A stretch of 64,000 nt of DNA from the NCBI GenBank assembly GCA_964016885.1, contig OZ024741.1, forward strand, positions 149,482,001 through 149,546,000. The letters run 5' to 3'. The notes under the pieces were generated by a model that was given only the letters and a program-made list of their open reading frames with translations, was not told the DNA's origin and searched no databases. This document shows positions 1 through 64,000 of the stretch, piece after piece. This DNA comes from Eledone cirrhosa (lineage: Eukaryota). The position numbers and the translations under genes were made by a program. Each line of letters begins with the position of its first letter. The first letter of the stretch is position 1.

Positions 1-410
1 GGAAAGAGGGAAAGTTGATTAAATCAACTCAGTGTGTTACTGGTACTTTACTTTATTGACCATATAAGTATAAAAGGCAAAGCCAACCTCAGTGGGATTT
101 GAACCCAGAATGTAAATGGCCATAACTATAGGCTACAACGCATGTTGTCTGGTGCTCCACTGATACTGCCAATCCACCATCCTATAGATACAAATAATGG
201 TTTCTGATTTAGGCACAAGGATATCAATTAGGGGGGGGGGGGGGATTAAATCGACCCCGGTGCATTACTGGTATTTTATTTATCGACCCGTAAGGATGAA
301 AAGCAAAGCTAACGTTGGCGGGATTTGAATTCAGAAGGTAAAGGGTCGTAACTATATGCAGCAAAGCATGTAATCCGACACTTTACCGATACTGCCAATC
401 CACCACTCTT
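1..410 (-). mobile_element. Two tandem tRNA-derived SINEs (Nin/Deu-like core)
   Basis: Reverse complement has a GTTCAAATCC B-box and the GCCTTTCATCCTTACGGGTCGATAAA..GTACCAG-type core. Confidence 0.8.
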
Positions 411-1679
411 ATAGATACATTAATAATAATAACAATAATTATAATTTCAACCTTTGACACAAAGCCACAAATTTTGGAAGAGAGGTACAACTGATTATAT
501 CAATACCACTACTTGACAGGTGTTTTGTTTTATCAACACCAGACAAATGAAAGGCAAAGTTTGAATACAGAATCTAAAGACATGTGACTAAATACTGTAA
601 ATCATTTCTTCCATTGCTTTAACCATTCTGTCATACTTGTCCTTAATTTAGAAATTAATAGTAAACTATTTAAATTTTCTTCCTTTTATTATTTCTGAAA
701 AGGTAAAGGGATTGATGAAATAATAGATCATGCTAGAAAACAGCAACCCTTAATTCTTAATCTCCTGTACCACATGAAACCACATTAGTAAGACTTTCTT
801 GTAAATTATAAAACAGTACTATGACTGCATCACATTAAAAATTAAAGTCTTTACTCTTATGCTATAAATTTTCACAATGATAATATATACATTTATAAAT
901 AGAGATACTATAAACATTTGAATTAACAAACCAGTTTTTAGACATTTTCTGCTCAATCTTTACAGGATGTTAAGTTAATATAGTTGTTTAGCCCTAGGTA
1001 AACCCTGGTCAAACAGACCTATAATAAATGGCATTCAAAACAAGACTGTCCCTTTTTTTCAGACACAATATATCTAAAACAGCAGATTGGCAGAATTGTT
1101 AGAACATCAGATCAAATGCATTGCAGTATTTGTTCCGACTCTGAACTCTCTGAGTTCAAATCCTGCTGAGGTCAACTTTGCCTTTTGTCCTTTTGAGGTC
1201 AATAAAAAAAAATTACCTGTCCAATACTGGGACAATTCTTCTTCTATATCTCTTTCTCACTTCCTTTCTCTCACTCTATAGCCTTACCATGTTGGTTGGT
1301 TGGTTGGTATATATAGTTTCCTTACTAGTGGACAGATTATTATGAAAATTTGCTATTTTGTACTTTTCAAGAATGTCTTGCAAATGTGATTTCATGTGGC
1401 ACAAAATGTTAAGAGTCAAGTGGGTGTTTATAACATAACTTAACAAAAGGTTATCACAAAAAATTAAGAATGGAAGGTTTTGATTTTAATAGAGGGGGTT
1501 TTATATCATAGAGACCAAAGGTGCTCACAGGAATGTGTAGTTAAAGAGTTTACTTAGCTAGCAACTACATGGTTTGGGGTTTACTCCTATTGTGTGCAAT
1601 TGTCTTCTACTATAGCCTTAGGTTGACTAATGTGAAATTTGGTAGATGAAAACTGAGCGGAAGCCCATTGTATATATAT

Positions 1680-2830
1680 ATCATCATCACCATCATCATT
1701 TTTACATCCGTTTTTCCATGCTTGCATGAGTTGGACAGGTCCTTTTCAGAACAACATCTCTCCACTTGCTGCATTTCTTCAGCACAACATCTCTCCACTT
1801 GCTGCATTTCTTCATCACCTCCTCTATGAGGCTCAGTGATTTGAGGTCAGCTCACACCACCTCTTCCCAGGTCTTTCTCGGTCCACCTCAACTCTAGCTT
1901 CCGTCCACTGGTATTTCCTGGCATTTTTTCACCCATTGATCATCATTCATGTATATCACATGCCCATACCAATGCAGTCATTTCTTCTGCACACCACCTC
2001 AGACTCCTCTTAAACCCAGCTTCTCCCTCAGTTCATTCAAGCTCTGCCTTACACATTGCACATCCAACGAAGCATGGCTGCTTCATTTCTCTCCAGTCTA
2101 TGCATGTCTTCTGCAGTCTCTGCCCATGTTTCACTACAATGCAAGATTGCACTTTGCACACAGGCATCATACTGTCGTCCTTTTGTATGTAGAAACAAAC
2201 CTTTTGTTGTCAACAGTGGGAGTAGCTCTGTAAGCTTCTTCTATCCAATCCTTATTCTAGCTATTATGCTCTCGGAGCACCCTCCTCCACCTAGATAGCA
2301 GAAGCTATCAACCACTTCTATGGATCCTTCCGATGACTTGATTACTCCTGTGCATCTTCTACATATAAAGTCTTCTTTCCTGTTAGTTTACCCATTATTC
2401 CACTACATCTCTTGTGTACCCAAGGTTTACATTGTGTACACTGTATAGAGTTTATGCCTACTCTTTTTCTACATATGGAGCAGGGCCACTTCCCTGAAGG
2501 GACCAGGGCCTTATCTTCTTTCCTACTAACTAGCACTTTAATTTTGGTTAAGTTTACTCTCAAACCTTTTGATTCTAAATTTCATTCCCATAGTTAGAAC
2601 TTATTTTCTAATTCTTTTATGGATTTGGTTATAAGGACCAAATCATCTGCATAAAGCAGTTCCCATGAACGGCCAGTCTCTGTTATGGCCTGGATAACTA
2701 TAATGAACAGCTATGGGCTAAGAACTGAACCCTGATAAACTCCTACCTGTACCTTGAATTCCTCACTAAACTCATTTTCTACTCTCACTTTACCAACAGC
2801 TCCTCTGTACATGGCTTGCACTTCTCTCAT
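1680..2830 (-). mobile_element. Degenerate 5'-truncated RTE LINE
   Basis: WELLYADD and WPCSICRK...WVHKRC remnants; (GAT)n tail near 1680. Confidence 0.85.
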
Positions 2831-3398
2831 TCTTCTACACCTAATTGCCTTAAGAACTACCATATATATATATATTGGTTCTGAACAAACAAGACATGGT
2901 CATCTGACCTGGCATTGCTCACAACAGGATAACTCGTCTAACCCATGCCACCGTGGAAAAACAGACATTAAACAGAGATGATGATGATGATAATATATAT
3001 ATATATACATATATATATAGCTAATGCTTACAGTGTATGTAACTGACATGACTTCTGTCTACTAATAACTGAAACCAGTGAAAAAGTTTTTTTAAAGGCA
3101 GTGGATTTTAGAGTGGATTTTAAAGGGGGATTTTAGAGTGAGTTTCTAGTGTTTTTTGGCACATTACCAGTATTTATGACTAAATTTTAAAAAATGCCAT
3201 AAATAGTGGAGCAAGAGTATTGTCAATCGAATTGTTCCCTCAGTTTATTACAGGTAGGGTTAGCTGACTCACATAGAATTTGAACTAAAATAATGGAAAG
3301 GCATTTAGTCACGTTTTTTCCACTATAGTAAAAGAACAAAAGAAAAGTGGTGTGAAGTGGGGTGCTATCAAAATATTAAAAGTAAATAAAATACGAAC

Positions 3399-3568
3399 AT
3401 ATATCTCCATACAAGTGATACTCTTTCTTTTGAGGATTGAAGAACAGAAAAACACCATGAGCTGATGATGTGCTACATCCTCCTTCACTGATGCGGGAGG
3501 CTACAAACACCTCCTTGCTACCATTCACATCTGCAATACGGGCTCTTACCTCCACATAAGTGTCAATC
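3399..3568 (-). CDS. GALC: GALC exon, about 170 bp, IDTYVEVRAR...VFVASRISEGGC...HGVFLFF...YHLYGDI
   Basis: tggcag acceptor; resembles human VFIAGRVNKGG..GIFFWI..YRVTGDL. The gttcgt donor was chosen by phase and is less certain. Confidence 0.85.
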
Positions 3569-3733
3569 CTGCCAACAAATAGAAAAAAAGATAGAGAACA
3601 ACTTTTTTTTTTAACTCAGAAAGGGCTACAAATTAATAATGGTTTCTGATTTAGGCACAAGGCCAACAATTTTGGGGGAGGAGAAAGTTGATTAAATCAA
3701 CCCCAGCGCATTACTGGTGTTTTATTTTATCAC

Positions 3734-6700
3734 TTTTTCATTGAGGACCTGCTGTCAGGTAGAGCTTTTCTGGTTGACACAGGTGCAGCTTGTTCCGTAT
3801 GGCCTGTGTGTTGTATGAAGGAGACCCCCTGAGACGCCTATTGAGTTGCAGGCAGTAAATTGTTCGCCGATTCGAACTTTCGGACAAATCTCGTTACCTT
3901 TGCAGTTTCGTAATCTGCGGCGCGAGTTTAAATGGATATTTACTGTCGCTGCCTTGCCGTATCCGATTCTAGGCGCGGATTTTCTCCACCATTTTTCATT
4001 GACGGTGGACCTTCGTGGTAAACGCCTAATTAATGGCATCACGGGATTAACTGTTGTTGGCAAGGCAGCAGGAGTTCCAACGGTTAGCCCGATATTTTTT
4101 CTTGCTAACACCGGTGATCCTTTCCATGCGTTGTTGAACTCGTTCCCGCAACTGACACAGGGGAATTTTCGATTTGATGAACCTACTCATACCACGGAGC
4201 ACTTCATATCTACAACTGGTGCTCCCGTTTTCTCTCGCCCTCGTTGCTTGCCTCCGGACAAACTCAAAGCAGCACGATCAGAATTTGATCATATGCTGCA
4301 AATGGGGATTATTCGTCCGTCCACGAGCCCGTGGGCGTCCCCATTGCACATGGTACCGAAAGCGAATGGCGATTGGAGACCTACTGGAGATTATCGACGC
4401 CTGAATTCGATAACGGTACCGGACCGTTATCCTATCCTTCATCTGCAAGACTTTGCGTCTTCGTTGCAGGGATGCAAGATATTCTCCAAACTGGATTTAA
4501 TTCGTGCGTACCATCAAATTCCTGTCCATAAAAATGACATTCCAAAAACGGCTATAGTTACGCCATTTGGGTCTTTCGAGTTTTTGACTATGCCGTTCGG
4601 ATTAAGGAATGCCGCTAGTACTTTTCAGCGGTTTATGGATGAGGTTACTCGCGGCCTCGATTTCGTCTATACCTATATTGACGACCTGCTCATTGCTAGT
4701 TCTTCTCCTGAGCAGCATACGCACCATTTGAATCTTCTTTTCTGCCGATTGAAGGCGTATAACGTGCAGCTTAATGCACCCAAATGTGTTTTTGGCGCTG
4801 AGTCACTGACTTTCTTGGGTCACGTCATCGATGCTGACGGAATTCGACCCCGGCCTGAGCGAGTTAAGGTCATAGAGGATTTGCCTCCACCAACCTCACT
4901 ACGTCAGTTACGCCAGTTCTTAGGTCTGGTTAACTTTTATAGGCGTTTCGTGCCAAATTGTGCCAAGTTGCTTTTCTCCCTGACAGAAATTTTGAAAAAT
5001 TGTCGGAGGAAGAACAAAGATATTTCTTTGACAGACACTCAACTTGCTGATTTTCAGCACGCCAAAACTGTTTTGGCTAATGCTTCGTTACTGACTCACC
5101 CGGTACCCGGTGCAAGGCTAACGCTTTGTGTTGATGCATCGGATATCGCTGTGGGCGCAGTACTACAGCAAAACATCAATGGTTACCAGCAACCGCTGGA
5201 GTTTTTTTCCAAAAAGCTAAATCCTGCTGAGACGCGCTACAGCACCTTTGGAAGAGAGCTTTTAGCCATCTATTTGGCCGTGAAACATTTTTCACATGTG
5301 CTAGAGGGTAGACAGTTTACTATCCTCACTGACCATAAACCATTGACTTTTGCTTTGAGAGCGAAGGCTGATAAATACTCGCCCAGAGAGACGAGACACC
5401 TTGATTTCATCTCGCAATATACGAGTGATATCCAGCACATTCCGGGTTCACTAAATACAGCGGCCGATGCTTTGTCCCGCTTGCCCGTGACAGCGATCTC
5501 GTCATCCTCTGACATAGATCTGACTCGTTTGGCTGCGGATCAGCCTCCCCTTGAGTCATTGGATGTCACATCGCCCGAGTTTGTGAATTGCGAGATGAAA
5601 TACTTGCCTCTGTCGACTGCAGTTGGCCAAATTCTCTGCGACGTCTCTTTGGACGTGCCTAGGCCCTTCGTTCCAGAGAATCATCGTCGGACCGTGTTTC
5701 TGGGATTACATTGTATCTCGCATCCAGGATCTTCTGCCACAGCAAAGCTCATATCAGCTAGATTTTTCTGGCCAAATATGAGGCGTGAAATTGCTGCTTG
5801 GTGCCGTTCCTGCGTCGCTTGCCAGAGATCAAAGGTCCATCGACACGTCAAGGCTCCCCTGGGTACCTTTGCTAACCCAGATGCGCGTTTTTCGCATATT
5901 CATATTGACATAGTGGGACCTTGACCTGTCAGCGATGGTTTTTCTTATCTACTTACCGTCATTGACCGTTTTTCGAGATGGCCTGAGGCCATCCCCTTGA
6001 AAAACATCACCGCGGAGACAACAGCACGTGCTCTTGTGTCTGGATGGATCTCTCGTTATGGAGTTCCATCCACAATAACTACCGACCGTGGACGACAGTT
6101 CGAGTCGAGCCTTTTCCTCGAGCTGTCAAAAATAATTGGTGCTAAACGCATTCGAACTATGGCATACCATCCCGCTTCGAATGGTATGGTGGAGCGTTTT
6201 CACCGCCAACTGAAGGCCTCCTTAATGGCCTCAATGGACTCGGCGCATTGGAGCGAGTACCTCCCTATTGTGCTACTAGGGATTCGGTCAACGGTGAAGG
6301 TCGACTTTGGATTTTCACCGGCCGAAGTACTGTACGGTGCCCCTCTGACGTTGCCCGGGCAAATGCTTGCCCCTATCGATCTTGATGCCCAAGATCACGC
6401 TTCCTACGTGTCCCGTTTGCGCTCCTATTTCCAGGATTTGCCGCCAATGGACACTAGGAAACAAACTGTCAAGACTGCTGTCCCGAGGGATATTGCCTCG
6501 TGGACGCATGTCTTTGTAAGGAATGATGCGGTGAAGCCCCCGCTCACACAGCCTTACACTGGACCTTACCGTGTCTTAGCGCGCTCGGCTAAGCATTTCA
6601 CGTTAGATATTAAGGGGTCCAGGGTGACAGTTACATTAGACAGGCTTAAGCAGGCGCACCTTGATACGGACGCTGTGGTCCCTGATCCACGAACCCCTTC

Positions 6701-6848
6701 GTATTTGCCTGTTGAGCGAACGACTGTTCCTGAACCACCATCATCGCCTGTCCCTACACCACCACCATCGCCACGTTACAAGACCACGACCCGTTCAGGT
6801 CGTAGGGTCCACTGGCCCAAAAAACTTTGCAGCACCGTCTATATTTAG
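3734..6848 (+). pseudogene. pol: Gypsy pol (PR-RT-RNase H-IN) with one frameshift and one stop
   Basis: FLVDTGA protease in another frame until the C-run near 3826-3830; RT YIDD; RNase H VDAS; HHCC zinc finger; TGA at 5922-5924; integrase core and GPY/F motif (YTGPYRV) continue in the same frame. Confidence 0.95.
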
Positions 6849-7076
6849 ACTATGTTAGCTGCACCTTTTTTTTTTGCCTCTGTGTTTCTGCTTTTCCTTT
6901 GCCTTGTTTTTTTTATGCATGCATGTCGTTTTTTTTTTAACATTTTTCAAATCCTTATTCTGGATTCAATTTTTGCTAGAGCGGATAGCTCCCCCTTGTT
7001 GCATTGTTCGCCATCTTACTCCACATGTGAGTAATGACATCGATTTTCAATAATTTGAAAATCTGGCTCGAGGTAC

Positions 7077-7300
7077 TGTAGTAAGACGCCTCACGCTCCT
7101 TGATAGAACAACGCCGGTTGAGAACGCCAGAAAGAAAAGACAGACAGCCACTGGAAAGCCGACGGATCACACGCCAGATACCAGCCTCTGTACAACACCA
7201 TTGTTTGTGCTACAACAAAAAATAAACGTATATTTCATCTCTAATTTCTGCTGTTATTATGTCACTTGCATCTCGATAACATCTACAACTAATACTGCTA
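7077..7300 (+). repeat. Gypsy 3' LTR (224 bp)
   Basis: Starts TGTAG, contains AATAAA, follows pol; inverted copy at 8403-8626 with one mismatch. Confidence 0.92.
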
Positions 7301-7530
7301 GACTTACAATTCCTCCTCAAAATCTCGCCCTTCAAAAACTCATACGTCAAGTCAGAGGGGGGGTCTGTAATTAGGTCTTGGACCGAATCTGCTAGATTAG
7401 GGGGAAGGCCGCTAATCAGTACAGCGAGGCGCTGGTCAGATTCGGTCTTACAGACCGTAAAATACGCCTGTAACTGGGCAAACCACATCTTAGGTTTTCC
7501 AGTAAAGGCGGGCAAATGTGGTACATTCAT
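7301..7530 (-). pseudogene. gag: Truncated Gypsy gag N-terminus
   Basis: MNVPHLPAFTGKPKMWFAQLQAYF...LPPNLADSVQDLITDPP..YEFLKGEILRR fits the LPxF..P..WFxQ.EA.F gag start; broken at the LTR junction. Confidence 0.85.
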
Positions 7531-8383
7531 GTCAACTTTTAAAATTAAAACAAATATATATACCTTGTACAGTGAAAAGAGAACAGCCAATATTGAGAAA
7601 AAGTTAAAGGGCAAAAAGAAACAGACATTCAAAACATAAGGAAATATGCAAAATACATAAAATACAGATATATATCTTTAAAAAAAAATTTTTCCTTCAA
7701 CGTCTGTCCCCTCGCGTTGCCTCAACGAACCAGCCAAATCAAATAAGGTAAAAAAAAAAGGAAGAAAAAAAAAAATGTTTGTTTTTTTTTTCAAAATATA
7801 TCCGCGTTGGATATCAACAAAGGTAGCCAGTGGCTAAAAATCCCTTAGAAAAAGGTAAGGCATGTATATCCCCATGCGGGGCAGTTATGTTCACACAAAA
7901 AAAGTTTAGTCTCTTCTCTCTTGATCAGTCATGGAACACACACGCAATTCAAAAAAATGTGTCCGTTACAAAACTGGGAAGGAACGCAACGCCACCTTGG
8001 AAAAATACACTTTTTTCTTTTTTCTCCTGTAAGTTGCGAAAAAGTTGGCAACGGAAATTGAATATTGAAGTGAATAAAAAAAAGTCGCTCTAAATTATCG
8101 ACACGAATGAATCGTTTTGATAGCTCCGATGTGTGGTGGTATGCGTCGGTAAGGCTATGAAGCTGCCACTCACTATTCCCTGTTTTGGTCAGTGGTTAAA
8201 CAATGTTGTCGCTGATGCTGCTGTCGTTGTTGTTCTCGAGTGTAGCAAAAAGTTTCTTGAAATACTACTAATTTTTCGATAATTTTAAAAGGATTATTTT
8301 TTATTTTCGCAAGATGCGAAAAAAAGGGCCGACAATGTGGCAATAAAAGGTCAATTGATGAAAAAGAAGGGCTGCGTTAAATT

Positions 8384-8399
8384 CTTACGTCGGTCACCA
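8384..8399 (-). promoter_or_regulatory. Primer-binding site, tRNA-Trp-like
   Basis: TGGTGACCGACGTAAG, 3 nt after the LTR match; resembles the Trp PBS TGGTGACCCCGACGTGAT lacking two C. Confidence 0.65.
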
Positions 8400-8402
8400 C
8401 TT

Positions 8403-8626
8403 TAGCAGTATTAGTTGTAGATGTTATCGAGATGCAAGTGACATAATAACAGCAGAAATTAGAGATGAAATATACGTTTATTTTTTGTTGTAGCACAAAC
8501 AATGGTGTTGTACAGAGGCTGGTATCTGGCGTGTGATCCATCGGCTTTCCAGTGGCTGTCTGTCTTTTCTTTCTGGCGTTCTCAACCGGCGTTGTTCTAT
8601 CAAGGAGCGTGAGGCGTCTTACTACA
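8403..8626 (-). repeat. Gypsy 5' LTR (224 bp)
   Basis: TGTAG end at 8626 abuts the target duplication; followed on the minus strand by a PBS. Confidence 0.92.
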
Positions 8627-8829
8627 AAATCAACCCCAGCGCATTACTGGTGTTTTATTTTATCAACCCTTGCAAGGATGAAAAGCAAAGCTAACTTCAG
8701 CAGGCTTTAAACTCAGAACATAATGTAACTATATGCTGCAAAACGTATTGTCTGATGATCTACCAATCCACAATAATAATAATAATGGTTTCTGATATAG
8801 GCACAAAGCCAGCAATTTGAAGGGGAGTC

Positions 8830-9405
8830 AGGACATAACAAGGATAGTCCATTGGGCACTTTGTGGAAAATATGCACTTGACAGAGGAGAAAAGTGGTAC
8901 AAACATGTACCCTGAGGGCGTTATAAAAAATTATGATGCTAAGATCCCGTGGGACTTTATGATACAGTATGACCATGAGATTGAGTACAGGAGACCAGAT
9001 ATTGTACTAATTGAGAAAGAAAGCAAACAGTGTTGGATCATAGATATAGCCTGTCCAGCTGATAACAAGGTATGTAACAAAGAAGGAAAAAAAATTGATA
9101 GGTATGACAAGTTAGCTTTGGAGGTTGGGCAGTTGTGGTCACTGGAAAAGGTGGTGGCAATACCAATAATAGTTGGACTCTTTGGAAGAGTGAGTAAAGA
9201 TCTTCAGAAGTGCATTAAACAAAAAGGGACGCAATACAGATGGAACACTTACAAAAAACAGCATTGCTTGGAACAGCTCAAATACTCCGGAGGGTACTCG
9301 AAAAATAAGGAGTGTTACCTCAGTTCACTGGTAGTGAACTGAGGTAACACTGTAATACATCTCCAGCATTAGAAGCTGAGCGAAGAAACAATAACCATAA
9401 TATAA
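8830..9405 (+). mobile_element. 3' fragment of an RLE-type non-LTR element (R4/Dong-like)
   Basis: WDFMIQYDHEIEYRRPDIVLIEK..WIIDIACP..K..RY matches a PD-(D/E)xK restriction-like endonuclease. Confidence 0.78.
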
Positions 9406-43924: not shown

Positions 43925-46900
43925 ATATTATAACAGAGGCGATGAGGAGTAAATAATAACTAAAGGGATGGGTAAATTATAACACAGGGGCAGACTAGAT
44001 TAAAACAGGGGGGGGGGGGGTTATAACAGGTGGAGAGAAGATTATAACAGAGAGGGAAGTAGTAGATAACAGGGGGAAGGGTAGATTATAACAGAGGAGG
44101 GAGGGTAGATTATAACAGAGAGGGGAGGGTATATTATAACAAAGAGGGGAGGAGTAGATTATAACGGATGGGGGGAGTAGTAGGTTATAACAGATGGAGA
44201 AGAAGTAGATTATAACAGATGGAGAAGGAGTAGATTATAACAGAGGGTGGAGGAGTAGATTATAACAGAAGGGGGAGGGTATATTATAACAGAGAGGGGA
44301 GGAGTAGATTATACCAGATGGGGGGGGGGGAGTAGTAGATTATAACAGATGGAGAAGGAGTAGATTATAACAGAGGGTGGAGTAGTAGATTATAACAGAG
44401 GGTGGAGGAATAGATTATAACAGATGGGGGGAGTAGTAGATTATAACAAAGGGGGAGGATATATTATAACAGAGAGGGGAGGAGTAGATTATAACAGATG
44501 GGGGGAGTAGTAGATTATAACAGATGGAGGAGTAGATTATAACAGAGGGTGGAGTAGTAGATTATAACAGAGGGTGGAGGAGTAGATTATAACAGAGGGT
44601 GGAGGAGTAGATTATAACAGATGGGGAGGAGTAGATTATAACAGATGGGGAGTAGTAGATTATAACAGATGGGGGGAGGAGGAGATTATAACAGATGGAG
44701 AGGAGTAGATTATAACAGATGGGGAGGAGTAGATTATAACAGAGGGTGGAGTAGTAGATTATAACAGATGGGGGGGAGGAGTAGATTATAACAGAGGGTG
44801 GAGGAGTAGATTATAACAGAGGGTGGAGGAGTAGATTATAACAGATGGGGAGGAGTAGATTATAACAGAGGGTGGAGTAGTAGACTATAACAGATGGGGG
44901 GAGTAGTAGATTATAACAGAGGGTGGAGTAGTAGATTATAACAGAGGGTGGAGGAGTAGATTATAACAGATGGGGAGGAGTAGATTATAACAGATGGGGG
45001 GAGGAGTAGATTATAACAGAGGGTGGAGGAGTAGATTATAACAGAGGGTGGAGGAGTAGATTATAACAGATGGGGAGGAGTAGATTATAACAGATGGGGG
45101 GAGGAGTAGATTATAACAGAGGGGGAGGAGTAGATTATAACAGATGGGGGGAGGAGTAGATTATAACAGAGGGTGGAGGAGTAGATTATAACAGAGGGTG
45201 GAGGAGTAGATTATAACAGATGGGGAGGAGTAGATTATAACAGAGGGTGGAGGAGTAGATTATAACAGCTGGGGGAGGAGTAGATTATAACAGATGGGGA
45301 GGAGTAGATTATAACAGAGGGTGGAGTAGTAGATTATAACAGAGAGGGAGTAGTAGATTATAACAGAGGGGGAGGAGTAGATTATAACAGAGGGTGGAGG
45401 AGTAGATTATAACAGAGGGTGGAGTAGTAGATTATAACAGAGGGGGAGGAGTAGATTATAACAGAGGGTGGAGTAGTAGATTATAACAGAGGGTGGAGTA
45501 GTAGATTATAACAGATGGGGGGAGGAGGAGATTATAACAGAGGGGGAGGAGTAGATTATAACAGAGGGTGGAGGAGTAGATTATAACAGATGGGGGGAGG
45601 AGTAGATTATAACAGAGGGTGGAGTAGTAGATTATAACAGAGGGTGGAGGAGTAGATTATAACAGATGGGTTGTAGTAGATTATAACAGATGGGGGGAGG
45701 AGGAGATTATAACAGAGGGGGAGGAGTAGATTATAACAGAGGGTGGAGGAGTAGATTATAACAGAGGGTGGAGGAGTAGATTATAACAGATCGGGGGAGG
45801 AGTAGATTATAACAGAGGGTGGAGTAGTAGATTATAACAGAGGGTGGAGGAGTAGATTATAACAGATGGGGGGAGGAGTAGATTATAACAGAGGGTGGAG
45901 TAGTAGATTATAACAGATGGGGGGAGGAGTAGATTATAACAGAGGGTGGAGTAGTAGATTATAACAGATGGGGGGAGGAGTAGATTATAACAGATGGGGA
46001 GGAGTAGATTATAACAGAGGGTGGAGTAGTAGATTATAACAGAGGGGGAGGAGTAGATTATAACAGAGGGTGGAGTAGTAGATTATAACAGAGGGTGGAG
46101 GAGTAGATTATAACAGATGGGGGGAGGAGTAGATTATAACAGAGGGTGGAGTAGTATATTATAACAGATGGGGGGAGGAGTAGATTATAACAGAGGGTGG
46201 AGTAGTAGATTATAACAGAGGGTGGAGTAGTAGATTATAACAGATGGGGGGGAGTAGATTATAACAGAGGGTGGAGTAGTAGATTATAACAGATGGGGGG
46301 AGTAGATTATAACAGAGGGTGGAGTAGTAGATTATAACAGATGGGGGGAGGTGTAGATTATAACAGATGGGGGGAGTACTAGATTATAACAGAGGGTGGA
46401 GGATTAGATTATAACAAATGGGGGGGAGGGTAGATTATAACAGAGGGTGGAGTAGTAGATTATAACAGAGGGTGGAGGAGTAGATTATAACAGATGGGGG
46501 GAGGAGTAGATTATAACAGATGGGGAGGAGTAGATTATAACAGATGGTGGATGAGTAGATTATAACAGATGGGGAGGAGTAGATTATAACAGATGGGGGA
46601 GGAGGAGATTATAACAGAGGGTGGAGTAGTAGATTATAACAGAGGGTGGAGGAGTAGATTATAACAGATGGGGGGAGGAGTAGATTATAACAGATGGGGA
46701 GGAGTAGATTATAACAGATGGTGGAGGAGTAGATTATAACAGATGGGGGGGAGTAGATTATAACAGATGGGGGAGGAGGAGATTATAACAGAGGGTGGAG
46801 TAGTAGATTATAACAGAGGGTGGAGGAGTAGATTATAACAGATGGGGGGAGGAGTAGATTATAACAGAGGGTGGAGGAGTAGATTATAACAGAGGGTGGA

Positions 46901-49900
46901 GTAGTAGATTATAACAGAGGGTGGAGGAGTAGATTATAAGAGATGGGGGGAGGAGTAGATTATAACAGAGGGTAGAGTAGTAGATTATAACAGATGGGGG
47001 GAGGAGTAGATTATAACAGTGGGTGGAGTAGTAGATTATAACAGATGGGAGGAGTAGATTATAACAGATGGGGAGTAGTAGATTATAACAGAGGGTGGAG
47101 GAGTAGATTATAACAGATGGGGAGTAGTAGATTATAACAGAGGGTGGAGTAGTAGATTATAACAGAGGGTGGAGGAGTAGATTATAACAGATGGGGAGGA
47201 GTAGATTATAACAGATGGGGAGGAGTAGATTATAACAGAGGGTGGAGGAGTAGATTATAACAGAGGGTGGAGGAGTAGATTATAACAGATGGGGGGAGGA
47301 GTAGATTATAACAGAGGGTGGAGGAGTAGATTATAACAGAGGGTGGAGGAGTAGATTATAACAGAGGGTGGAGGAGTAGATTATAACAGATGGGGAGGAG
47401 TAGGAGGAGTAGATTATAACAGAGGGTGGAGTAGTAGATTATAACAGATGGGGGGAGGAGTAGATTATAACAGAGGGTGGAGGAGTAGATTATAACAGAG
47501 GGTGGAGGAGTAGATTATAACAGATGGGGGCAGGAGTAGATTATAACAGAGGGTGGAGGAGTAGATTATAACAGAGGGTGGAGGACTAGATTATAACAGA
47601 GGGTGGAGGAGTAGATTATAACAGATGGGGAGGAGTAGATTATAACAGATGGGGAGGAGTAGATTATAACAGAGGGTGGAGTAGTAGATTATAACAGAGG
47701 GTGGAGGAGTAGATTATAACAGATGGGGGGAAGAGTAGATTATAACAGAGGGTGGAGGAGTAGATTATAACAGATGGGGGGAAGAGTAGATTATAACAGA
47801 GGGTGGAGGAGTAGATTATAACAGAGGGAGGAGGAGTAGATTATAACAGAGGGTGGAGGAGTAGATTATAACAGAGGGTGGAGGAGTAGATTATAACAGA
47901 TGGGGGGAGGAGTAGATTATAACAGAGGGTGGAGGAGTAGATTATAACAGAGGGTGGAGGAGTAGATTATAACAGAGGGTGGAGGAGTAGATTATAACAG
48001 ATGGGGAGGAGTAGATTATAACAGAGGGTGGAGTAGTAGATTATAACAGAGGGGGAGGAGTAGATTATAACAGAGGGTGGAGGAGTAGATTATAACAGAT
48101 GGGGGGAGGAGGAGATTATAACAGATGGGGAGGAGTAGATTATAACAGAGGGTGGAGTAGTAGATTATAACGGATGGGGGGAGGAGTAGATTATAACAGA
48201 GGGTGGAGGAGTAGATTATAACGGATGGGGGGAGGAGTAGATTATAACAGATGGGGAGGAGTAGATTATAACAGATGGGGAGGAGTAGATTATAACAGAG
48301 GGTGGAGTAGTAGATTATAACAGAGGGTGGAGGAGTAGATTATAACAGAGGGTGGAGTAGTAGATTATAACGGATGGGGGGAGGAGTAGATTATAACAGA
48401 GGGTGGAGGAGTAGATTATAACAGAGGGTGGAGGAGTAGATTATAACAGATGGGGAGGAGTAGATTATAACAGATGGGGAGGAGTAGATTATAACAGAGG
48501 GTGGAGTAGTAGATTATAACAGAGGGTGGAGGAGTAGATTATAACAGAGAGGGAGTAGTAGATTATAACAGAGGGGGAGGAGTAGATTATAACAGAGGGG
48601 GGGGGTAGATTATAACAGAAGGTGGAGTAGTAGATTATAACAGAGAGGGAGTAGTAGATTATAACAGAGGGTGGAGGAGTAGATTATAACAGAGGGTGGA
48701 GGAGTAGATTATAACAGCTGGGGGGAGGAGTAGATTATAACAGATGGGGGAGGAGTAGATTATAACAGATGTGGAAGAGTAGATTCTAACAGATGGGGGG
48801 AGTAGATTATAACAGAGGATGGAGGAGTAGATTATAACATATGGGGGGAGTAGTAGATTATAACAGAGGGTGGAGGAGTAGATTATAACAGATGGGGGGA
48901 GGAGTAGATTATTCAGAGGGTGGAGGAGTAGATTGTAACAGAGGGTGGAGTAGTAGATTATAACAGATGGGGGGAGTAGATTATAACAGATGGTGGGAGG
49001 AGTAGATTATAACAGAGGGTGGAGGAGTAGATTATTCAGAGGGTGGAGGTGTAGATTATAACAGCTGGGGGGAGGAGGAGATTATAACAGATGGGGAGGA
49101 GTAGATTATAACAGAGGGTGGAGGAGTAGATTATAACAGATGGGTGGAGTAGTAGATTATAACAGATGGGTGGAGTAGTAGATTATAACAGATGGGGAGG
49201 AGTAGACTATAACAGAGGGGGAGGAGTAGATTATAACAGATGGGAGGAGTAGATTATAACGGATGGTGGAGGAGTAGATTATAACAGAGGGTGGAGGAGT
49301 AGATTATAACAGAGGGTGGAAGAGTAGATTATAACAGAGGGTGGAGGAGTAGATTATAACAGATGGGGAGGAGTAGATTATAACAGATGGGGAGGAGTAG
49401 ATTATAACAGATGGGGGGAGTAGATTATAACAGAGGGTGGAGGAGTAGATTATAACATATGGGGGGAGTAGTAGATTATAACAGAGGGTGGAGGAGTAGA
49501 TTATAACAGATGGGGGGAGGAGTAGATTATTCAGAGGGTGGATGAGTAGATTATAACAGATGGAGAGGAGTAGATTATAACAGAGGGTGGAGGTGTAGAT
49601 TATAACAGCTGGGGGGAGGAGTAGATTATAACAGATGGGGAGGAGTAGATTATAACAGATGGTGGGAGGAGTAAATTATAACAGAGGGTGGAGGAGTAGA
49701 TTATTCAGAGGGTGGAGGTGTAGATTATAACAGCTGGGGGGAGGAGTAGATTATAACAGATGGGGAGGAGTAGATTATAACAGATGGTGGGAGGAGTAGA
49801 TTATAACAGAGGGTGGAGGAGTAGATTATTCAGAGGGTGGAGGTGTAGATTATAACAGCTGGGGGGAGGAGTAGATTATAACAGATGGGGAGGAGTAGAT

Positions 49901-52900
49901 TATAACAGATGGTGGAGGAGTAGATTATAACAGATGGGGAGGAGTAGATTATAACAGATGGTGGAGTAGTAGATTGTAACAGAGGGTGGAGTAGTAGATT
50001 ATAACAGAGGGTGGAGGAGTAGATTATAACAGATGGGGAGGAGTAGATTATAACAGATGGGGAGGAGTAGATTATAACAGAGGGTGGAGGAGTAGATTAT
50101 AACAGAGGGTGGAGGAGTAGATTATAACAGATGGGGGGAGGAGTAGATTATAACAGAGGGTGGAGGAGTAGATTATAACAGAGGGTGGAGGAGTAGATTA
50201 TAACAGAGGGTGGAGGAGTAGATTATAACAGATGGGGAGGAGTAGGAGGAGTAGATTATAACAGAGGGTGGAGTAGTAGATTATAACAGATGGGGGGAGG
50301 AGTAGATTATAACAGAGGGTGGAGGAGTAGATTATAACAGAGGGTGGAGGAGTAAATTATAACAGATGGGGAGGAGTAGATTATAACAGATGGGGAGGAG
50401 TAGATTATAACAGAGGGTGGAGTAGTAGATTATAACAGAGGGTGGAGGAGTAGATTATAACAGATGGGGAGGAGTAGATTATAACAGATGGGGAGGAGTA
50501 GATTATAACAGAGGGTGGAGGAGTTGATTATAACAGAGGGTGGAGGAGTAGATTATAACAGATGGGGGGAGGAGTAGATTATAACAGAGGGTGGAGGAGT
50601 AGATTATAACAGAGGGTGGAGGAGTAGATTATAACAGAGGGTGGAGGAGTAGATTATAACAGATGGGGGGAGGAGTAGATTATAACAGAGGGTGGAGGAG
50701 TAGATTATAACAGAGGGTGGAGGAGTAGATTATAACAGAGGGTGGAGGAGTAGATTATAACAGATGGGGAGGAGTAGATTATAACAGAGGGTGGAGTAGT
50801 AGATTATAACAGAGGGGGAGGAGTAGATTATAACAGAGGGTGGAGGAGTAAATTATAACAGATGGGGGGAGGAGGAGATTATAACAGATGGGGAGGAGTA
50901 GATTATAACAGATGGGGAGGAGTAGATTATAACAGAGGGTGGAGTAGTAGATTATAACAGATGGGGGGAGGAGTAGATTATAACAGAGGGTGGAGGAGTA
51001 GATTATAACAGAGGGTGGAGGAGTAGATTATAACAGATGGGGAGGAGTAGATTATAACAGATGGGGAGGAGTAGATTATAACAGAGGGGGAGGAGTAGAT
51101 TATAACAGAGGGTGGAGTAGTAGATTATAACAGATGGAGGAGGAGTAGATTATAACAGATGGGGAGGAGTAGATTATAACAGAGGGTGGAGTAGTAGATT
51201 ATAACAGATGGGGAGGAGTAGATTATAACAGAGAGGGAGTAGTAGATTATAACAGAGGGGGAGGAGTACATTATAACAGAGGGGGGGGGAGTAGATTATA
51301 ACAGAGGGTGGAGTAGTAGATTATAACAGAGAGGGAGTAGTAGATTATAACAGAGGGTGGAGGAGTAGATTATAACAGAGGGTGGAGGAGTAGATTATAA
51401 CAGCTGGGGGGAGGAGTAGATTATAACAGATGGGGGAGGAGTAGATTATAACAGATGGGGAGGAGTAGATTATAACAGATGGGGGGGAGTAGATTATAAC
51501 AGAGGGTGGAGGTATAGATTATAACAGCTGGGGGGAGGAGTAGATTATAACAGATGGGGAGGAGTAGATTATAACAGATGGTGGGAGGAGTAGATTATAA
51601 CAGAGGGTGGAGGAGTAGATTATTCAGAGGGTGGAGGTGTAGATTATAACAGCTGGGGGGAGGAGTAGATTATAACAGATGGGGAGGAGTAGATTATAAC
51701 AGATGGTGGGAGGAGTAGATTATAACAGAGGGTGGAGGAGTAGATTATTCAGAGGGTGGAGGTGTAGATTATAACAGCTGGGGGGAGGAGTAGATTATAA
51801 CAGATGGGGAGGAGTAGATTATAACAGATGGTGGAGGAGTAGATTATAACAGATGGGGAGGAGTAGATTATAACAGATGGTGGAGTAGTAGATTATAACA
51901 GAGGGTGGAGTAGTAGATTATAACAGAGGGTGGAGGAGTAGATTATAACAGATGGGGAGGAGTAGATTATAACAGATGGGGAGGAGTAGATTATAACAGA
52001 GGGTGGAGGAGTAGATTATAACAGAGGGTGGAGGAGTAGATTATAACAGATGGGGGGAGGAGTAGATTATAACAGAGGGTGGAGGAGTAGATTATAACAG
52101 AGGGTGGAGGAGTAGATTATAACAGAGGGTGGAGGAGTAGATTATAACAGATGGGGAGGAGTAGGAGGAGTAGATTATAACAGAGGGTGGAGTAGTAGAT
52201 TATAACAGATGGGGGAAGGAGTAGATTATAACAGAGGGTGGAGGAGTAGATTATAACAGAGGGTGGAGGAGTAAATTATAACAGATGGGGAGGAGTAGAT
52301 TATAACAGATGGGGAGGAGTAGATTATAACAGAGGGTGGAGTAGTAGATTATAACAGAGGGTGGAGGAGTAGATTATAACAGATGGGGAGGAGTAGATTA
52401 TAACAGATGGGGAGGAGTAGATTATAACAGAGGGTGGAGGAGTAGATTATAACAGAGGGTGGAGGAGTAGATTATAACAGATAGGGGGAGGAGTAGATTA
52501 TAAAAGAGAGTGGAGGAGTAGATTATAACAGAGGGTGGAGGAGTAGATTATAACAGAGGGTGGAGGAGTAGATTATAACAGATGGGGAGGAGTAGATTAT
52601 AACAGATGGGGAGGAGTAGATTATAACAGAGGGTGGAGTAGTAGATTATAACAGAGGGTGGAGGAGTAGATTATAACAGATGGGGGGAGGAGTAGATTAT
52701 AACAGATGGGGAGGAGTAGATTATAACAGAGGGTGGAGTAGTAGATTATAACAGAGGGTGGAGGAGTAGATTATAACAGAGGGTGGAGGAGTAGATTATA
52801 ACAGAGGGTGGAGGAGTAGATTATAACAGAGGGTGGAGGAGTAGATTATAACAGAGGGTGGAGGAGTAGATTATAACAGAGGGTGGAGGAGTAGATTATA

Positions 52901-55900
52901 ACAGAGGGTGGAGGAGTAGATTATAACAGAGGGTGGAGGAGTAGATTATAACAGAGGGTGGAGGAGTAGATTATAACAGATGGGGAGGAGTAGATTATAA
53001 CAGAGGGTGGAGGAGTAGATTATAACAGAGGGTGGAGGAGTAGATTATAACAGAGGGTGGAGGAGTAGATTATAACAGAGGGTGGAGGAGTAGATTATAA
53101 CAGATGGGGGGAGGAGTAGATTATAACAGAGGGTGGAGGAGTAGATTATAACAGAGGGTGGAGGAGTAGATTATAACAGAGGGTGGAGGAGTAGATTATA
53201 ACAGATGGGGAGGAGTAGATTATAACAGAGGGTGGAGTAGTAGATTATAACAGAGGGGGAGGAGTAGATTATAACAGAGGGTGGAGTAGTAGATTATAAC
53301 AGAGAGGGAGTAGTAGATTATAACAGAGGGTGGAGGAGTAGATTATAACAGAGGGTGGAGGAGTAGATTATAACAGCTGGGGGGAGGAGTAGATTATAAC
53401 AGATGGGGGAGGAGTAGATTATAACAGATGGGGAGGAGTAGATTATAACAGATGGGGGGGAGTAGATTATAACAGAGGGTGGAGGTGTAGATTATAACAG
53501 CTGGGGGGAGGAGTAGATTATAACAGATGGGGAGGAGTAGATTATAACAGATGGTGGGAGGAGTAGATTATAACAGAGGGTGGAGGAGTAGATTATTCAG
53601 AGGGTGGAGGTGTAGATTATAACAGCTGGGGGGAGGAGTAGATTATAACAGATGGGGAGGAGTAGATTATAACAGAGGGTGGGGGAGTAGATTATTCAGA
53701 GGGTGGAGGTGTAGATTATAACAGCTGGGGGGAGGAGTAGATTATAACAGATGGGGAGGAGTAGATTATAACAGATGGTGGAGGAGTAGATTATAACAGA
53801 TGGGGAGGAGTAGATTATAACAGATGGTGGAGTAGTAGATTATAACAGAGGGTGGAGGAGTAGATTATAACAGATGGGGAGGAGTAGATTATAACAGATG
53901 GGGAGGAGTAGATTATAACAGAGGGTGGAGGAGTAGATTATAACAGAGGGTGGAGGAGTAGATTATAACAGATGGGGGGAGGAGTAGATTATAACAGAGG
54001 GTGGAGGAGTAGATTATAACAAAGGGTGGAGGAGTAGATTATAACAGAGGGTGGAGGAGTAGATTATAACAGATGGGGAGGAGTAGGAGGAGTAGATTAT
54101 AACAGAGGGTGGAGTAGTAGATTATAACAGATGGGGGGAGGAGTAGATTATAACAGAGGGTGGAGGAGTAGATTATAACAGAGGGTGGAGGAGTAAATTA
54201 TAACAGATGGGGAGGAGTAGATTATAACAGATGGGGAGGAGTAGATTATAACAGAGGGTGGAGTAGTAGATTATAACAGAGGGTGGAGGAGTAGATTATA
54301 ACAGATGGGGAGGAGTAGATTATAACAGATGGGGAGGAGTAGATTATAACAGAGGGTGGAGGAGTAGATTATAACAGAGGGTGGAGGAGTAGATTATAAC
54401 AGATGGGGGGAGGAGTAGATTATAACAGAGGGTGGAGGAGTAGATTATAACAGAGGGTGGAGGAGTAGATTATAACAGAGGGTGGAGGAGTAGATTATAA
54501 CAGATGGGGAGGAGTAGATTATAACAGATGGGGAGGAGTAGATTATAACAGAGGGTGGAGTAGTAGATTATAACAGAGGGTGGAGGAGTAGATTATAACA
54601 GATGGGGGGAGGAGTAGATTATAACAGAGGGTGGAGGAGTAGATTATAACAGAGGGTGGAGGAGTAGATTATAACAGAGGGTGGAGGAGTAGATTATAAC
54701 AGATGGGGGGAGGAGTAGATTATAACAGAGGGTGGAGGAGTAGATTATAACAGAGGGTGGAGGAGTAGATTATAACAGATGGGGAGGAGTAGATTATAAC
54801 AGAGGGTGGAGTAGTAGATTATAACAGAGGGGGAGGAGTAGATTATAACAGAGGGTGGAGGAGTAAATTATAACAGATGGGGGGAGGAGGAGATTATAAC
54901 AGATGGGGAGGAGTAGATTATAACAGATGGGGAGGAGTAGATTATAACAGAGGGTGGAGTAGTAGATTATAACAGATGGGGGGAGGAGTAGATTATAACA
55001 GAGGGTGGAGGAGTAGATTATAACAGAGGGTGGAGGAGTAGATTATAACAGATGGGGAGGAGTAGATTATAACAGATGGGGAGGAGTAGATTATAACAGA
55101 GGGTGGAGTAGTAGATTATAACAGAGGGGGAGGAGTAGATTATAACAGAGGGTGGAGTAGTAGATTATAACAGATGGAGGAGGAGTAGATTATAACAGAG
55201 GGTGGAGGAGTAGATTATAACAGAGGGTGGAGGAGTAGATTATAACAGAGGGTGGAGGAGTAGATTATAACAGAGGGTGGAGGAGTAGATTATAACAGAG
55301 GGTGGAGTAGTAGATTATAACAGAGGGTGGAGGAGTAGATTATAACAGATGGGGGGAGGAGTAGATTATAACAGAGGGTGGAGGAGTAGATTATAACAGA
55401 GGGTGGAGGAGTAGATTATAACAGAGGGTGGAGGAGTAGATTATAACAGAGGGTGGAGGAGTAGATTATAACAGATGGGGGGAGGAGTAGATTATAACAG
55501 AGGGTGGAGGAGTAGATTATAACAGATGGGGAGGAGTAGATTATAACAGAGGGTGGAGTAGTAGATTATAACAGAGGGTGGAGGAGTAGATTATAACAGA
55601 TGGGGGGAGGAGTAGATTATAACAGAGGGTGGAGGAGTAGATTATAACAGAGGGTGGAGGAGTAGATTATAACAGAGGGTGGAGGAGTAGATTATAACAG
55701 AGGGTGGAGGAGTAGATTATAACAGATGGGGGGAGGAGTAGATTATAACAGAGGGTGGAGGAGTAGATTATAACAGAGGGTGGAGGAGTAGATTATAACA
55801 GAGGGTGGAGGAGTAGATTATAACAGATGGGGAGGAGTAGATTATAACAGAGGGTGGAGTAGTAGATTATAACAGAGGGGGAGGAGTAGATTATAACAGA

Positions 55901-61900: not shown

Positions 61901-64000
61901 AGATTATAACAGAGGGTGGAGGAGTAGATTATAACAGATGGGGAGGAGTAGATTATAACAGAGGGTGGAGTAGTAGATTATAACAGAGGGGGAGGAGTAG
62001 ATTATAACAGAGGGTGGAGTAGTAGATTATAACAGAGAGGGAGTAGTAGATTATAACAGAGGGTGGAGGAGTAGATTATAACAGAGGGTGGAGGAGTAGA
62101 TTATAACAGCTGGGGGGAGGAGTAGATTATAACAGATGGGGGAGGAGTAGATTATAACAGATGGGGAGGAGTAGATTATAACAGATGGGGGGGAGTAGAT
62201 TATAACAGAGGGGGAGGAGTAGATTATAACAGAGGGTGGAGGAGTAGATTATAACAGAGGGTGGAGGAGTAGATTATAACAGCTGGGGGGAGGAGTAGAT
62301 TATAACAGATGGGGAGGAGTAGATTATAACAGATGGTGGGAGGAGTAGATTATAACAGAGGGTGGAGGAGTAGATTATTCAGAGGGTGGAGGTGTAGATT
62401 ATAACAGCTGGGGGGAGGAGTAGATTATAACAGATGGGGAGGAGTAGATTATAACAGAGGGTGGGGCAGTAGATTATTCAGAGGGTGGAGGTGTAGATTA
62501 TAACAGCTGGGGGGAGGAGTAGATTATAACAGATGGGGAGGAGTAGATTATAACAGATGGTGGAGGAGTAGATTATAACAGATGGGGAGGAGTAGATTAT
62601 AACAGATGGTGGAGTAGTAGATTATAACAGAGGGTGGAGGAGTAGATTATAACAGATGGGGAGGAGTAGATTATAACAGATGGGGAGGAGTAGATTATAA
62701 CAGAGGGTGGAGGAGTAGATTATAACAGAGGGTGGAGGAGTAGATTATAACAGATGGGGGGAGTAGATTATAACAGATGGGGGGAGGAGTTGATTATAAC
62801 AGATGGTGGAGGAGTAGATTATAACATATGGGGGGAGTAGTAGATTATAACAGATGGAGAGGAGTAGATTATAACAGATGGTGGGAGGAGTAGATTATAA
62901 CAGAGGGTGGAGGAGTAGATTATAACAGAGGGTGGAGGAGTAGATTATAACAGATGGGGGGAGTAGTAGATTATAACAGATGGGGAGTAGATTATAACAG
63001 AGGGTGGAGTATATTATAACAGAGGGTGGAGGAGTAGATTATAACAGCTGGGGGGAGTAGATTATAACAGATGGGGGAGGAGTAGATTATAACAGAGGGA
63101 GTAGATTATAACTGAGGGTGGAGTAGTAGATTATAACAAATGTGGGGAGGAGTAGATTATAACAGATGGGGGGGAGGAGTAGATTATAACAGATGGGGGG
63201 AGGAGTTGATTATAAGAGAGGGTGGAGGAGTAGATTATAACAGATGGGGGAGGAGGAGATTATAACAGAGAGGGAGGAGTAGATTATAACAGAGGATGGA
63301 AGAGTAGATTATAACAGAGGGTGGAGGAGTAGATTATAAGAGAGGGTGGAGGAGTAGTTTATAACAGAGGGTGGTGTAGTAGATTATAACAGAGGGGGAG
63401 GAGTAGATTGTAACAGATGGGGGGAGGAGGAGATTATAACAGATGGGGGGAGGAGTTGATTATAAGAGAAGGTGGAGGAGTAGATTATAACAGATGGGGG
63501 GAGGAGGAGATTATAACAGAGAGGGAGGAGTAGATTATAACAGAGGGTGGTGTAGTAGATTATAACAGAGGGGGAGGAGTAGATTGTAACAGATGGGGGG
63601 AGGAGTAGATTATAACAGATGGGGGGAGTAGTAGATTATAACAGAGGGTGGAGTAGTAGATTATAACAGGGTGGAGGAGTAGATTATAACAGAGAGGGAG
63701 GAGTAGATTATAACAGATGGGGGAGGAGTTGATTATAAGAGAGGGTGGAGGAGTAGATTATAGCAGATGGGGGGAGGAGGAGATTATAACAGAGAGGGAG
63801 GAGTAGATTATAACAGAGGATGGAAGAGTAGATTATAACAGAGGGTGGAGGAGTAGATTATAAGAGAGGGTGGAGGAGTAGATTATAACAGAGGGTGGTG
63901 TAGTAGATTATAACAGAGGGGGAGGAGTAGATTGTAACAGATGGGGGGAGGAGGAGATTATAACAGATGGGGGGAGGAGTTGATTATAAGAGAAGGTGGA
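43925..64000 (+). repeat. Satellite array >20 kb, 24-26-bp monomer GATTATAACAGAGGGTGGAGGAGTA, roughly 800 copies
   Basis: Near-invariant GTAGATTATAACAG core plus a variable G-rich half; continues past the window end. Copy number is length divided by 25. Confidence 0.98.

Follow-up and report, generated by a model that had tools for sequence, protein, structure and literature searches.

An inside-out Gypsy copy in Eledone cirrhosa, probably left by a one-ended integration that host repair completed

Aberrant HIV-1 and ASLV proviruses have been described (PMC5041404) in which one end is normal and the second is truncated and attached, in either orientation, to viral DNA, usually with a host duplication larger than the normal target-site duplication (TSD), for which template switching by a host polymerase was proposed; they come from cultured cells in which integrase was inhibited by drugs or mutated, or in which the LTR ends carried mutations. 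For Ty1 and Arabidopsis SISYPHUS, inversion circles are known (PMC7197481) that consist of an internal segment, an LTR, a reversed internal segment and a reversed LTR, are extrachromosomal, and have both joints made by integrase. Among titles and abstract openings, with subscription papers outside the coverage, none described an LTR retrotransposon with the layout reported here, which is not proof of its absence from print.

The window, a stretch of 64,000 nucleotides of Eledone cirrhosa (contig OZ024741.1, positions 149,482,001 to 149,546,000), contains a Gypsy copy in which pol and an LTR on the plus strand are joined to a gag fragment, leader, primer-binding site (PBS) and LTR on the minus strand, with a 39-bp duplication on both sides. 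This inside-out anatomy, with inverted LTRs and gag opposite to pol, had been proposed in a sequence-only reading and is confirmed, as assembled, by the LTR arms, Pfam domains and strands; no read or contig of the filled junctions was seen, so the confirmation is limited to the assembly. In window coordinates, the SINE-like 5' part of a host repeat outside the duplication (3634–3693, plus strand; contig depth very high here) is followed by the left 39-bp copy (3694–3732, plus strand), pol beginning where the protease region starts (3733–6848, plus strand; protease, reverse transcriptase, RNase H and integrase by Pfam and translation, broken), a 3' untranslated region with a purine-rich end at the family's polypurine tract (PPT) position before the 3' LTR (6849–7076, plus strand), and the 3' LTR itself (7077–7300, plus strand), which by family comparison holds 224 of 226 bp. 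The minus-strand part comprises the first ~76 codons of gag (7301–7530), the 5' leader (7531–8386), a tRNA-Trp-type PBS in the common family form 2 bases shorter than the perfect complement (8387–8399), and a 5' LTR that is complete by family comparison (8401–8626, 226 bp), followed on the plus strand by the right 39-bp copy (8627–8665) and the 3' remainder of the host repeat (8666–8790).

Pfam matches on the plus strand were RVT_1, RT_RNaseH, Integrase_H2C2 and rve, in that order, the best solved-structure match was Ty3 Gag-Pol (E 2.3e-84), a DTGA protease motif was read directly, and the minus-strand fragment matched the gag-type domain DUF7041. pol is interrupted by a frame change and stops at ~3816–3832, and by an in-frame stop at 5922–5924 inside the integrase core, where the base at 5924 is private to this copy (0/81 aligned family segments have the same base). 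Inverted LTRs are also found in DIRS-1-type elements, which use a tyrosine recombinase (PMC3950715), whereas the insert has a DDE (rve) core and relatives with direct LTRs; with no recombinase domain among its Pfam matches, a DIRS-type element was rejected.

The parent is assigned by PBS, TSD, gag motif and pol order to an ordinary young CsRN1-like Gypsy family, ~5.5 kb long, with direct 226-bp LTRs ending TG…AA and two ORFs in shifted frames. Shared with the CsRN1 clade (PMC2582038) are the tRNA-Trp PBS, 4-bp TSD, CX2HX9CX3C motif, two frame-shifted ORFs and PR-RT-RH-IN order, whereas LTR ends in the clade are TG...CA and the family's PBS is mostly 2 bases shorter. An exact 4-bp TSD was present in 29/35 two-LTR copies, in keeping with the direct LTRs and short TSD that had been expected of Gypsy, and the window copy has neither; the gag motif was found in 36/40 two-LTR copies. 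The PBS was the full complement of genomic tRNA-Trp(CCA) 3' ends, taken from two genomic clusters with tRNA, in 5/62 read, and was 2 bases shorter in 52/62 and in the window copy; three other candidate loci had no tRNA. The copy survey covered the first 100 of 234 LTR starts and the first 100 of 212 places with an LTR end plus PBS, and leaves out copies without PPT plus LTR on later contigs. Internal deletions are common in the family, and truncated copies exist with either end clean. These truncated copies and the 29/35 exact TSDs at the non-canonical AA end do not support the idea that integrase uses this end poorly and that such events are the result.

In family coordinates, the insert runs forward from ~1917 to 2 bases before the end, and then in reverse from ~1329 to 1. 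The two pieces had been called directly joined; the junction is present, but 587 bp of the element, from mid-gag to protease start and including the rest of gag with its CHCC zinc motif (CX2HX9CX3C), are missing between them (587 in 6/8 family copies checked, 566 in one, region absent in one). Similarly, the reported inverted 224-nt arms hold (7077–7300 and 8403–8626, 1102 nt apart), as does their single C/T difference in a CpG at LTR position 87 (window 7163/8540), but with a family LTR of 226 bp the minus-strand LTR is complete and the plus-strand LTR is 2 bases short. The 3344 bp of pol contain 8 private differences, leader and gag (1100 bp) contain 6, and the LTRs 0 and 1, which makes ~15 in ~4890 bp; on these counts the two halves are about equally young.

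Only the right end of the insert had been judged clean, with the left break at the protease start, and this was upheld: the U3 TG end at 8626 adjoins the duplication cleanly and is the sole integrase-type host junction, and the other end is truncated and internal, with the protease start against the left 39-mer. The left (3732/3733) and middle (7300/7301) junctions had 1 genome match each with <=1 mismatch allowed. At the middle junction, between the plus-strand LTR and reversed gag, no clean microhomology was found. The LTR there stops 2 bases before the family end, which reads AAA after ...TGCT in 143/148 LTR ends read. A pattern search for LTR ends 2 bases short gave 14 matches, 13 of them outside the family (control, 12); it missed copy L151, in which the second LTR ends either 2 bases early or as a CA variant.

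The exact direct repeat 3694–3732 = 8627–8665 agrees with the duplication claimed earlier, and the whole 39-mer occurs exactly twice in the 3.0-Gb assembly, both times at this locus, which excludes chance flanking by two separate repeat copies; a 25-mer from within it occurs 83 times. The interrupted host repeat, which we take to be a SINE, was split by the insert as proposed, since 3626–3732 and 8666–8790 adjoin within −3 to +1 bases in 39/72 collinear match pairs (one of the 39 being the window's own right-hand copy); the remaining 33/72 are offset by 27–37 bases. The insertion site reads TT/AAAT, which we take to resemble the L1 cut motif. LINE endonuclease with RNA-templated twin priming was rejected, since neither junction has an A tail and U3 is present in both LTRs.

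These features are best accounted for, in our judgment, by a single rearranged Gypsy copy that probably arose from one-ended (half-site) integration completed by host repair, each step being reconstructed from the end product alone. At 8626/8627, integrase would have linked the 3' end of U3 to the host, where a nick exposing a host 3' end remained. A host polymerase would then have extended this end by 39 nt along the chromosome, giving the duplication, and switched at a 2-nt CA microhomology to the element minus strand at the protease start; CA forms the last 2 bases of the left 39-mer and also precedes the break position in 58/60 family copies, and since such a match is expected by chance ~1 in 16, it is weak evidence alone. 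Copying would have run to the free U5 end, with 2 bases lost there, and the new end would have reached gag at ~1329 either by joining or by a further template switch, with loss of 587 bp, a step that is left unspecified because the middle junction has no clean microhomology. Host end-joining is an alternative agent for the duplication and inversion. In geometry the product matches twin priming, with DNA in place of RNA as the template: genomic RNA of LTR elements carries no U3 at its 5' end, and U3 in both LTRs indicates that the substrate was DNA. For one-ended integration speak the long exact duplication that begins at the clean end, the 2-base loss right at the cDNA terminus, the place expected of a free end, and the known normal behaviour of the family (4-bp TSD, 226-bp LTRs). 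The earlier proposal of a recent aberrant one-off event in which one cDNA end joined the chromosome is sustained by the clean U3 junction at 8626 and the single-copy odd junctions, and its attribution of the long duplication to host repair is likely correct.

Against one-ended integration, no second copy with a clean end and long duplication was found among readable copies, and three copies with matching 4-bp TSDs (L032, L096 and L113) have inverted pieces inside, so that post-insertion rearrangement does occur. A normal copy with a 4-bp TSD could have been broken later at the U5/host border; in repair, 35 more bases would have been copied, with either the right flank or the empty homolog as template, before a switch into the element that removed 587 bp and left pol and the 3' LTR inverted. 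Seven other family copies with different inverted pieces, three of them the TSD-bearing copies just named, keep this explanation a rival, L125 may be a further copy with inverted pieces and a normal 4-bp TSD, the family is rich in internal deletions, and the ~15 private differences allow time enough. We nevertheless consider later repair rather unlikely, since it requires a chance break <=2 bases from the LTR end plus a templated host copy, both 39-mers are identical, and the inverted pieces of L096 and L113 are only 54–132 bp, with both ends intact and no long duplication. The combination of one clean end and a long duplication was absent from one set of 28 cases and, the window copy apart, from a second set of 29 that includes it; at L125, L055, L112, L124, L156 and TA-flanked copies, the DNA is tandem or repeated (TA, minisatellite) and duplications are unreadable.

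The sequence-only reading had the other cDNA end joined to the element's own gag in an auto-integration-like step. Integrase would have put the U5 end into gag and the U3 end into the chromosome, with host repair completing the left side, and the order of parts is indeed that of an opened inversion circle (PMC7197481). In copy L064, a full LTR end is likewise joined to reversed gag, with other breakpoints and no terminal LTR. The window joint differs from those of inversion circles in being 2 bases short, lacking the last two bases that are kept at integrated ends, so that it is not a clean integrase product; in place of the ~4-bp gag duplication expected of an inversion circle, 587 bp are lost, and the U3 end is chromosomal. 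The L064 join has one extra G, matching the base between LTR and PBS (0/63 other matched gag-site contexts), which fits an end that was incompletely processed better than a joint made by integrase. Half auto-integration is therefore weakened, and we regard it as improbable.

A propagating element with a new inverted-LTR architecture had also been raised. L064 shares the LTR end on reversed gag, at 1/86 other PPT plus LTR places read, and its recurrence with other breakpoints points to a repeatable accident rather than a lineage. In 3 Gb, each odd junction of the window copy occurs once; its gag is truncated and its pol broken, and the PBS has no sense LTR or PPT downstream, from which a dead end is predicted for ordinary LTR replication; self-propagation is the least credible of the readings considered, and within this assembly it is refuted.

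Contigs from 4 runs (at most 2 samples, 1 study) were compared with the locus; the runs need not derive from the assembled individual, and contigs drop rare variants. None bridges 3732/3733 into protease. In run X3, one contig spans the site, has a single 39-mer and does not branch into protease, and its joined flank sequence is locus-specific, which suggests an empty site at this locus; the inside-out copy is probably a polymorphic allele. Whole-region contig mapping was swamped by repeats, and there the junctions were neither shown nor contradicted. The X3 contigs all have a different letter at several positions private to the window copy, which, together with the missing bridge, would fit an assembly artefact, in which fold-back or chimeric long reads or mis-joined repeats create the inversion. 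This is very improbable, as the duplication is locus-specific and starts precisely where the TG end stands, the left flank is single-copy, the middle junction is no palindrome, and the LTRs differ by a CpG transition shared by 0/64 exact-context matches elsewhere.

Two near-identical LTRs, taken as promoters, point towards each other, with 1.1 kb of leader, PBS and gag between them; given this layout, the predicted fold of 7177–8526 necessarily has a 126-bp LTR stem. Transcription from the 5' LTR would continue into 3.3 kb of pol in antisense. It is conceivable, if doubtful, that the failed integration built a natural, polymorphic germline silencing cassette, a source of hairpin and antisense transcripts directed at a young Gypsy family, like Mu killer of maize, which derives from an active element by rearrangement and partial inversion and could yield hairpin or antisense RNA (PMC3440606). 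Mu killer derives from a plant DNA transposon and its silencing has been shown, whereas the window copy is known from DNA alone. If true, aberrant integration would be a direct route for an LTR family to arm the host against itself, with the seven other inverted copies as additional examples, and the locus would gain importance should the facing LTRs yield small RNAs that silence the family.

Taken as a probable one-ended integration, the locus compares with two described systems. Natural germline LTR insertions of HERV-K(HML-2) (PMC5488345) have flanking duplications of 13–450 bp, some are polymorphic, and one is a truncated provirus, but in the available text an internal inversion is not described and the word 'inverted' is absent. 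The one-ended HIV-1/ASLV type is alike in having one exact integrase-like end and another that is truncated and element-joined, with a long host duplication, although the supplement rows of PMC5041404 available here list chromosome inversions rather than this internal layout. The window copy differs in that it lies naturally in a genome, belongs to an invertebrate Gypsy element and is mostly inverted, and would thus be a clean natural instance of a process known mostly from drug- or mutant-perturbed retroviruses in culture. It is of interest to integration and DNA-repair specialists as a curiosity and a warning to annotation tools that require direct LTRs and short TSDs. By all appearances the event was a one-off accident of the kind known from retrovirus experiments, and not a new element architecture.

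The insert spans 3733-8626 of the window (G000:C2:149482001-149546000; assembly size 3.0 Gb, with host repeats that suggest a genome of cephalopod type) and is bracketed by exact copies of a 39-mer at 3694-3732 and 8627-8665, bearing out the duplication described in the sequence-only reading; by genome-wide count the 39-mer occurs twice in the entire assembly, both times here, and a 25-mer taken from it occurs 83 times. The flanks are two halves of one host repeat, as had been proposed, and in 39 of the 72 collinear hit pairs, among them the right-hand copy of the window itself, the interrupted halves abut within -3 to +1 bases. Pol, whose domains are those of RT, RNase H and integrase, and one LTR (7077-7300) lie on the plus strand, and the second LTR (8626-8401), PBS, leader and first ~76 codons of gag lie on the minus strand, so that inverted LTRs with gag opposite to pol were confirmed by position, as were the single LTR difference, at a CpG, and the one clean LTR end on the right, the U3 end being exact at 8626. 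The LTR length of 224 bp claimed for both holds for the plus copy, which is 2 bases short; the minus LTR has the 226 bp of the family. On a ruler consisting of one real family copy, the insert runs forward from ~1917 to 2 bases before the end, then reversed from ~1329 to 1, and lacks 587 bp of the element, including the gag zinc motif; pol is broken at two places (protease region, and 5922-5924). With 15 near-private differences over ~4890 bp, and a count of 7 private differences across 2.9 kb of pol, where 40 ordinary copies have 4-26, the window's copy is young, though not new. Elsewhere in the window, a G-rich 25-bp minisatellite of at least 20 kb with higher-order periods and a GC skew of 0.8 occupies 44029-64000, a perfect 19-bp hairpin lies at 9311-9351, and an open frame of 164 aa at 8848-9342, with no Pfam match, may resemble the restriction-like endonuclease of site-specific LINEs.

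Genome-wide, 234 LTR starts and 90 PPT+LTR places of the parent family were counted. Ordinary copies are ~5.5 kb long with direct 226-bp LTRs, and the exact 4-bp TSD present in 29 of the 35 two-LTR copies fixes the LTR ends as TG...AA (AA-type in 143 of 148 ends read). TG...AA, not TG...CA, is found family-wide (e.g. loci L033, L034, L036), though TSDs are exact, and GT after the AA end and AC before the TG start form a symmetric 2-base overhang; LTRs with non-TGCA ends are reportedly known from plants (PMC5659011). The PBS is of tRNA-Trp type and in 52 of 62 read falls 2 bases short of the tRNA-Trp complement (window PBS, 8399-8387), although the PBS is normally recopied from tRNA each cycle; tRNA-Trp(CCA) genes form tandem arrays on C4 (L169, L170). 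A CX2HX9CX3C gag motif was found in 36 of 40 copies, and Ty3 was the best solved-structure match to pol. LTR-end+PBS places number 212 versus the 90 PPT+LTR places, and the last ~29 bases of the family LTR also occur in other elements (e.g. L171), some with a longer tRNA complement, which suggests that there are non-autonomous partners.

A propagating new architecture, as envisaged earlier, was not borne out and is extremely improbable: in a whole-assembly pattern search, each odd junction matched one genomic place at ≤1 mismatch. At 86 further distinct PPT+LTR places the sequence was read for 300 nt or more past the PPT+LTR; reversed own internal DNA followed the LTR at one of them, L064 (1895-6126; pol, full LTR end and one G, followed by gag and leader in reverse), which sits in TA repeats without terminal LTRs. 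The search for the same layout yielded one further inside-out case, with breakpoints unlike those of the insert (2190 to the end, followed by 1538 to 638). Adjoining inverted pieces were found in six more copies (L065, L096, L113, L125, L151, L032). L065 (1601-4981) holds ruler 141-3281 forward, 2 extra bases and then, in reverse, LTR 218-1, whose TG end is clean, and no duplication was found to flank it within 10 kb; L151 (1587-5168) holds 5487-5173 reversed, then 2226-5485 forward, with two 3' LTR ends facing outward and no TSD found; L032 (1038-7501), which belongs to a variant differing in its internal region, has an inverted LTR pair and a ~990-bp inverted duplication. Matching 4-bp TSDs are kept by L032, L096 and L113, whose inversions therefore needed no failed integration; for the insert, a normal copy first and repair-driven rearrangement later is unlikely. 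No long flanking duplication was readable at any of these seven; inverted derivatives in this family are therefore a repeated accident, with separate breakpoints each time. Other derivatives include deletions in which nothing of the 3' LTR but its terminal 10-15 bases survives (L069, L081, L091; 4-bp TSD kept in L069 and L091), a tandem- or circularly-permuted-like copy with one LTR, PPT upstream and PBS downstream (L070:4438-9780), and three clustered, internally deleted 2.3-kb copies with LTR+PBS joined to position ~3425 (L109, L110).

Six sequencing runs matched part of the window, and contigs were compared in four sets, all belonging to one study and to no more than two samples. The left flank showed 0 differences over 629 bp. 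At the junction (98% likeness, region 3668-3765), a 73-nt contig of run X3 continues from 3696-3732 unbroken into sequence from 8666 on, a join that is locus-specific in the assembly, and contigs at 3683-3718 and 3689-3725 tie it to the left flank; none of the contigs listed at this likeness and region (159 more pieces matched) joined 3732 to the protease. The unbroken contig fits an empty site because the assembly graph would be expected to branch at that point if the allele were filled; since the filled allele's right junction has the same 73 letters and contigs lose rare variants, the case for an empty allele is likely but falls short of proof. The layout is real in the assembly, the filled allele being without independent support from the four contig sets, and misassembly is very improbable.

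The left junction (3732/3733) has a 2-nt CA microhomology, and CA precedes the break site in 58 of 60 family copies. The middle junction (7300/7301) is blunt, the LTR there ends 2 bases early, and LTR end and gag-site context differ in all 62 matched contexts; half auto-integration, in which integrase itself would join the element into gag, is quite improbable, and inversion circles from auto-integration have been described (PMC7197481). The best model, which we consider probable, is one-ended integration completed by host repair: integrase would join the U3 end alone to the host, the free host 3' end would be extended by 39 nt, would change template at CA to the minus strand of the element and copy as far as the free U5 end, and the new end would then be joined back into gag.

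Neither a sense LTR nor a PPT follows the insert's PBS, so failure of ordinary strand transfer is predicted. The LTRs point towards one another; an RNA that starts mid-LTR is predicted to form a 126-bp stem with a 1.1-kb loop, which the arrangement itself makes expected, and transcription running on from the 5' LTR would be antisense to pol. This facing-LTR layout, with its predicted hairpin and antisense RNA, is similar to that of Mu killer (PMC3440606), and a role as a silencing source against its own family is unlikely. The parent family resembles the CsRN1 clade by features, sharing the tRNA-Trp PBS, CX2HX9CX3C motif and 4-bp TSD named for it (PMC2582038). The insert itself is a one-off event of an already known kind: on the best model it belongs to the same class as the aberrant HIV and ASLV integrants reported in PMC5041404, for which a host polymerase was proposed to copy DNA of the host or the virus in either orientation, and natural HERV-K insertions likewise carry long flanking duplications (PMC5488345).
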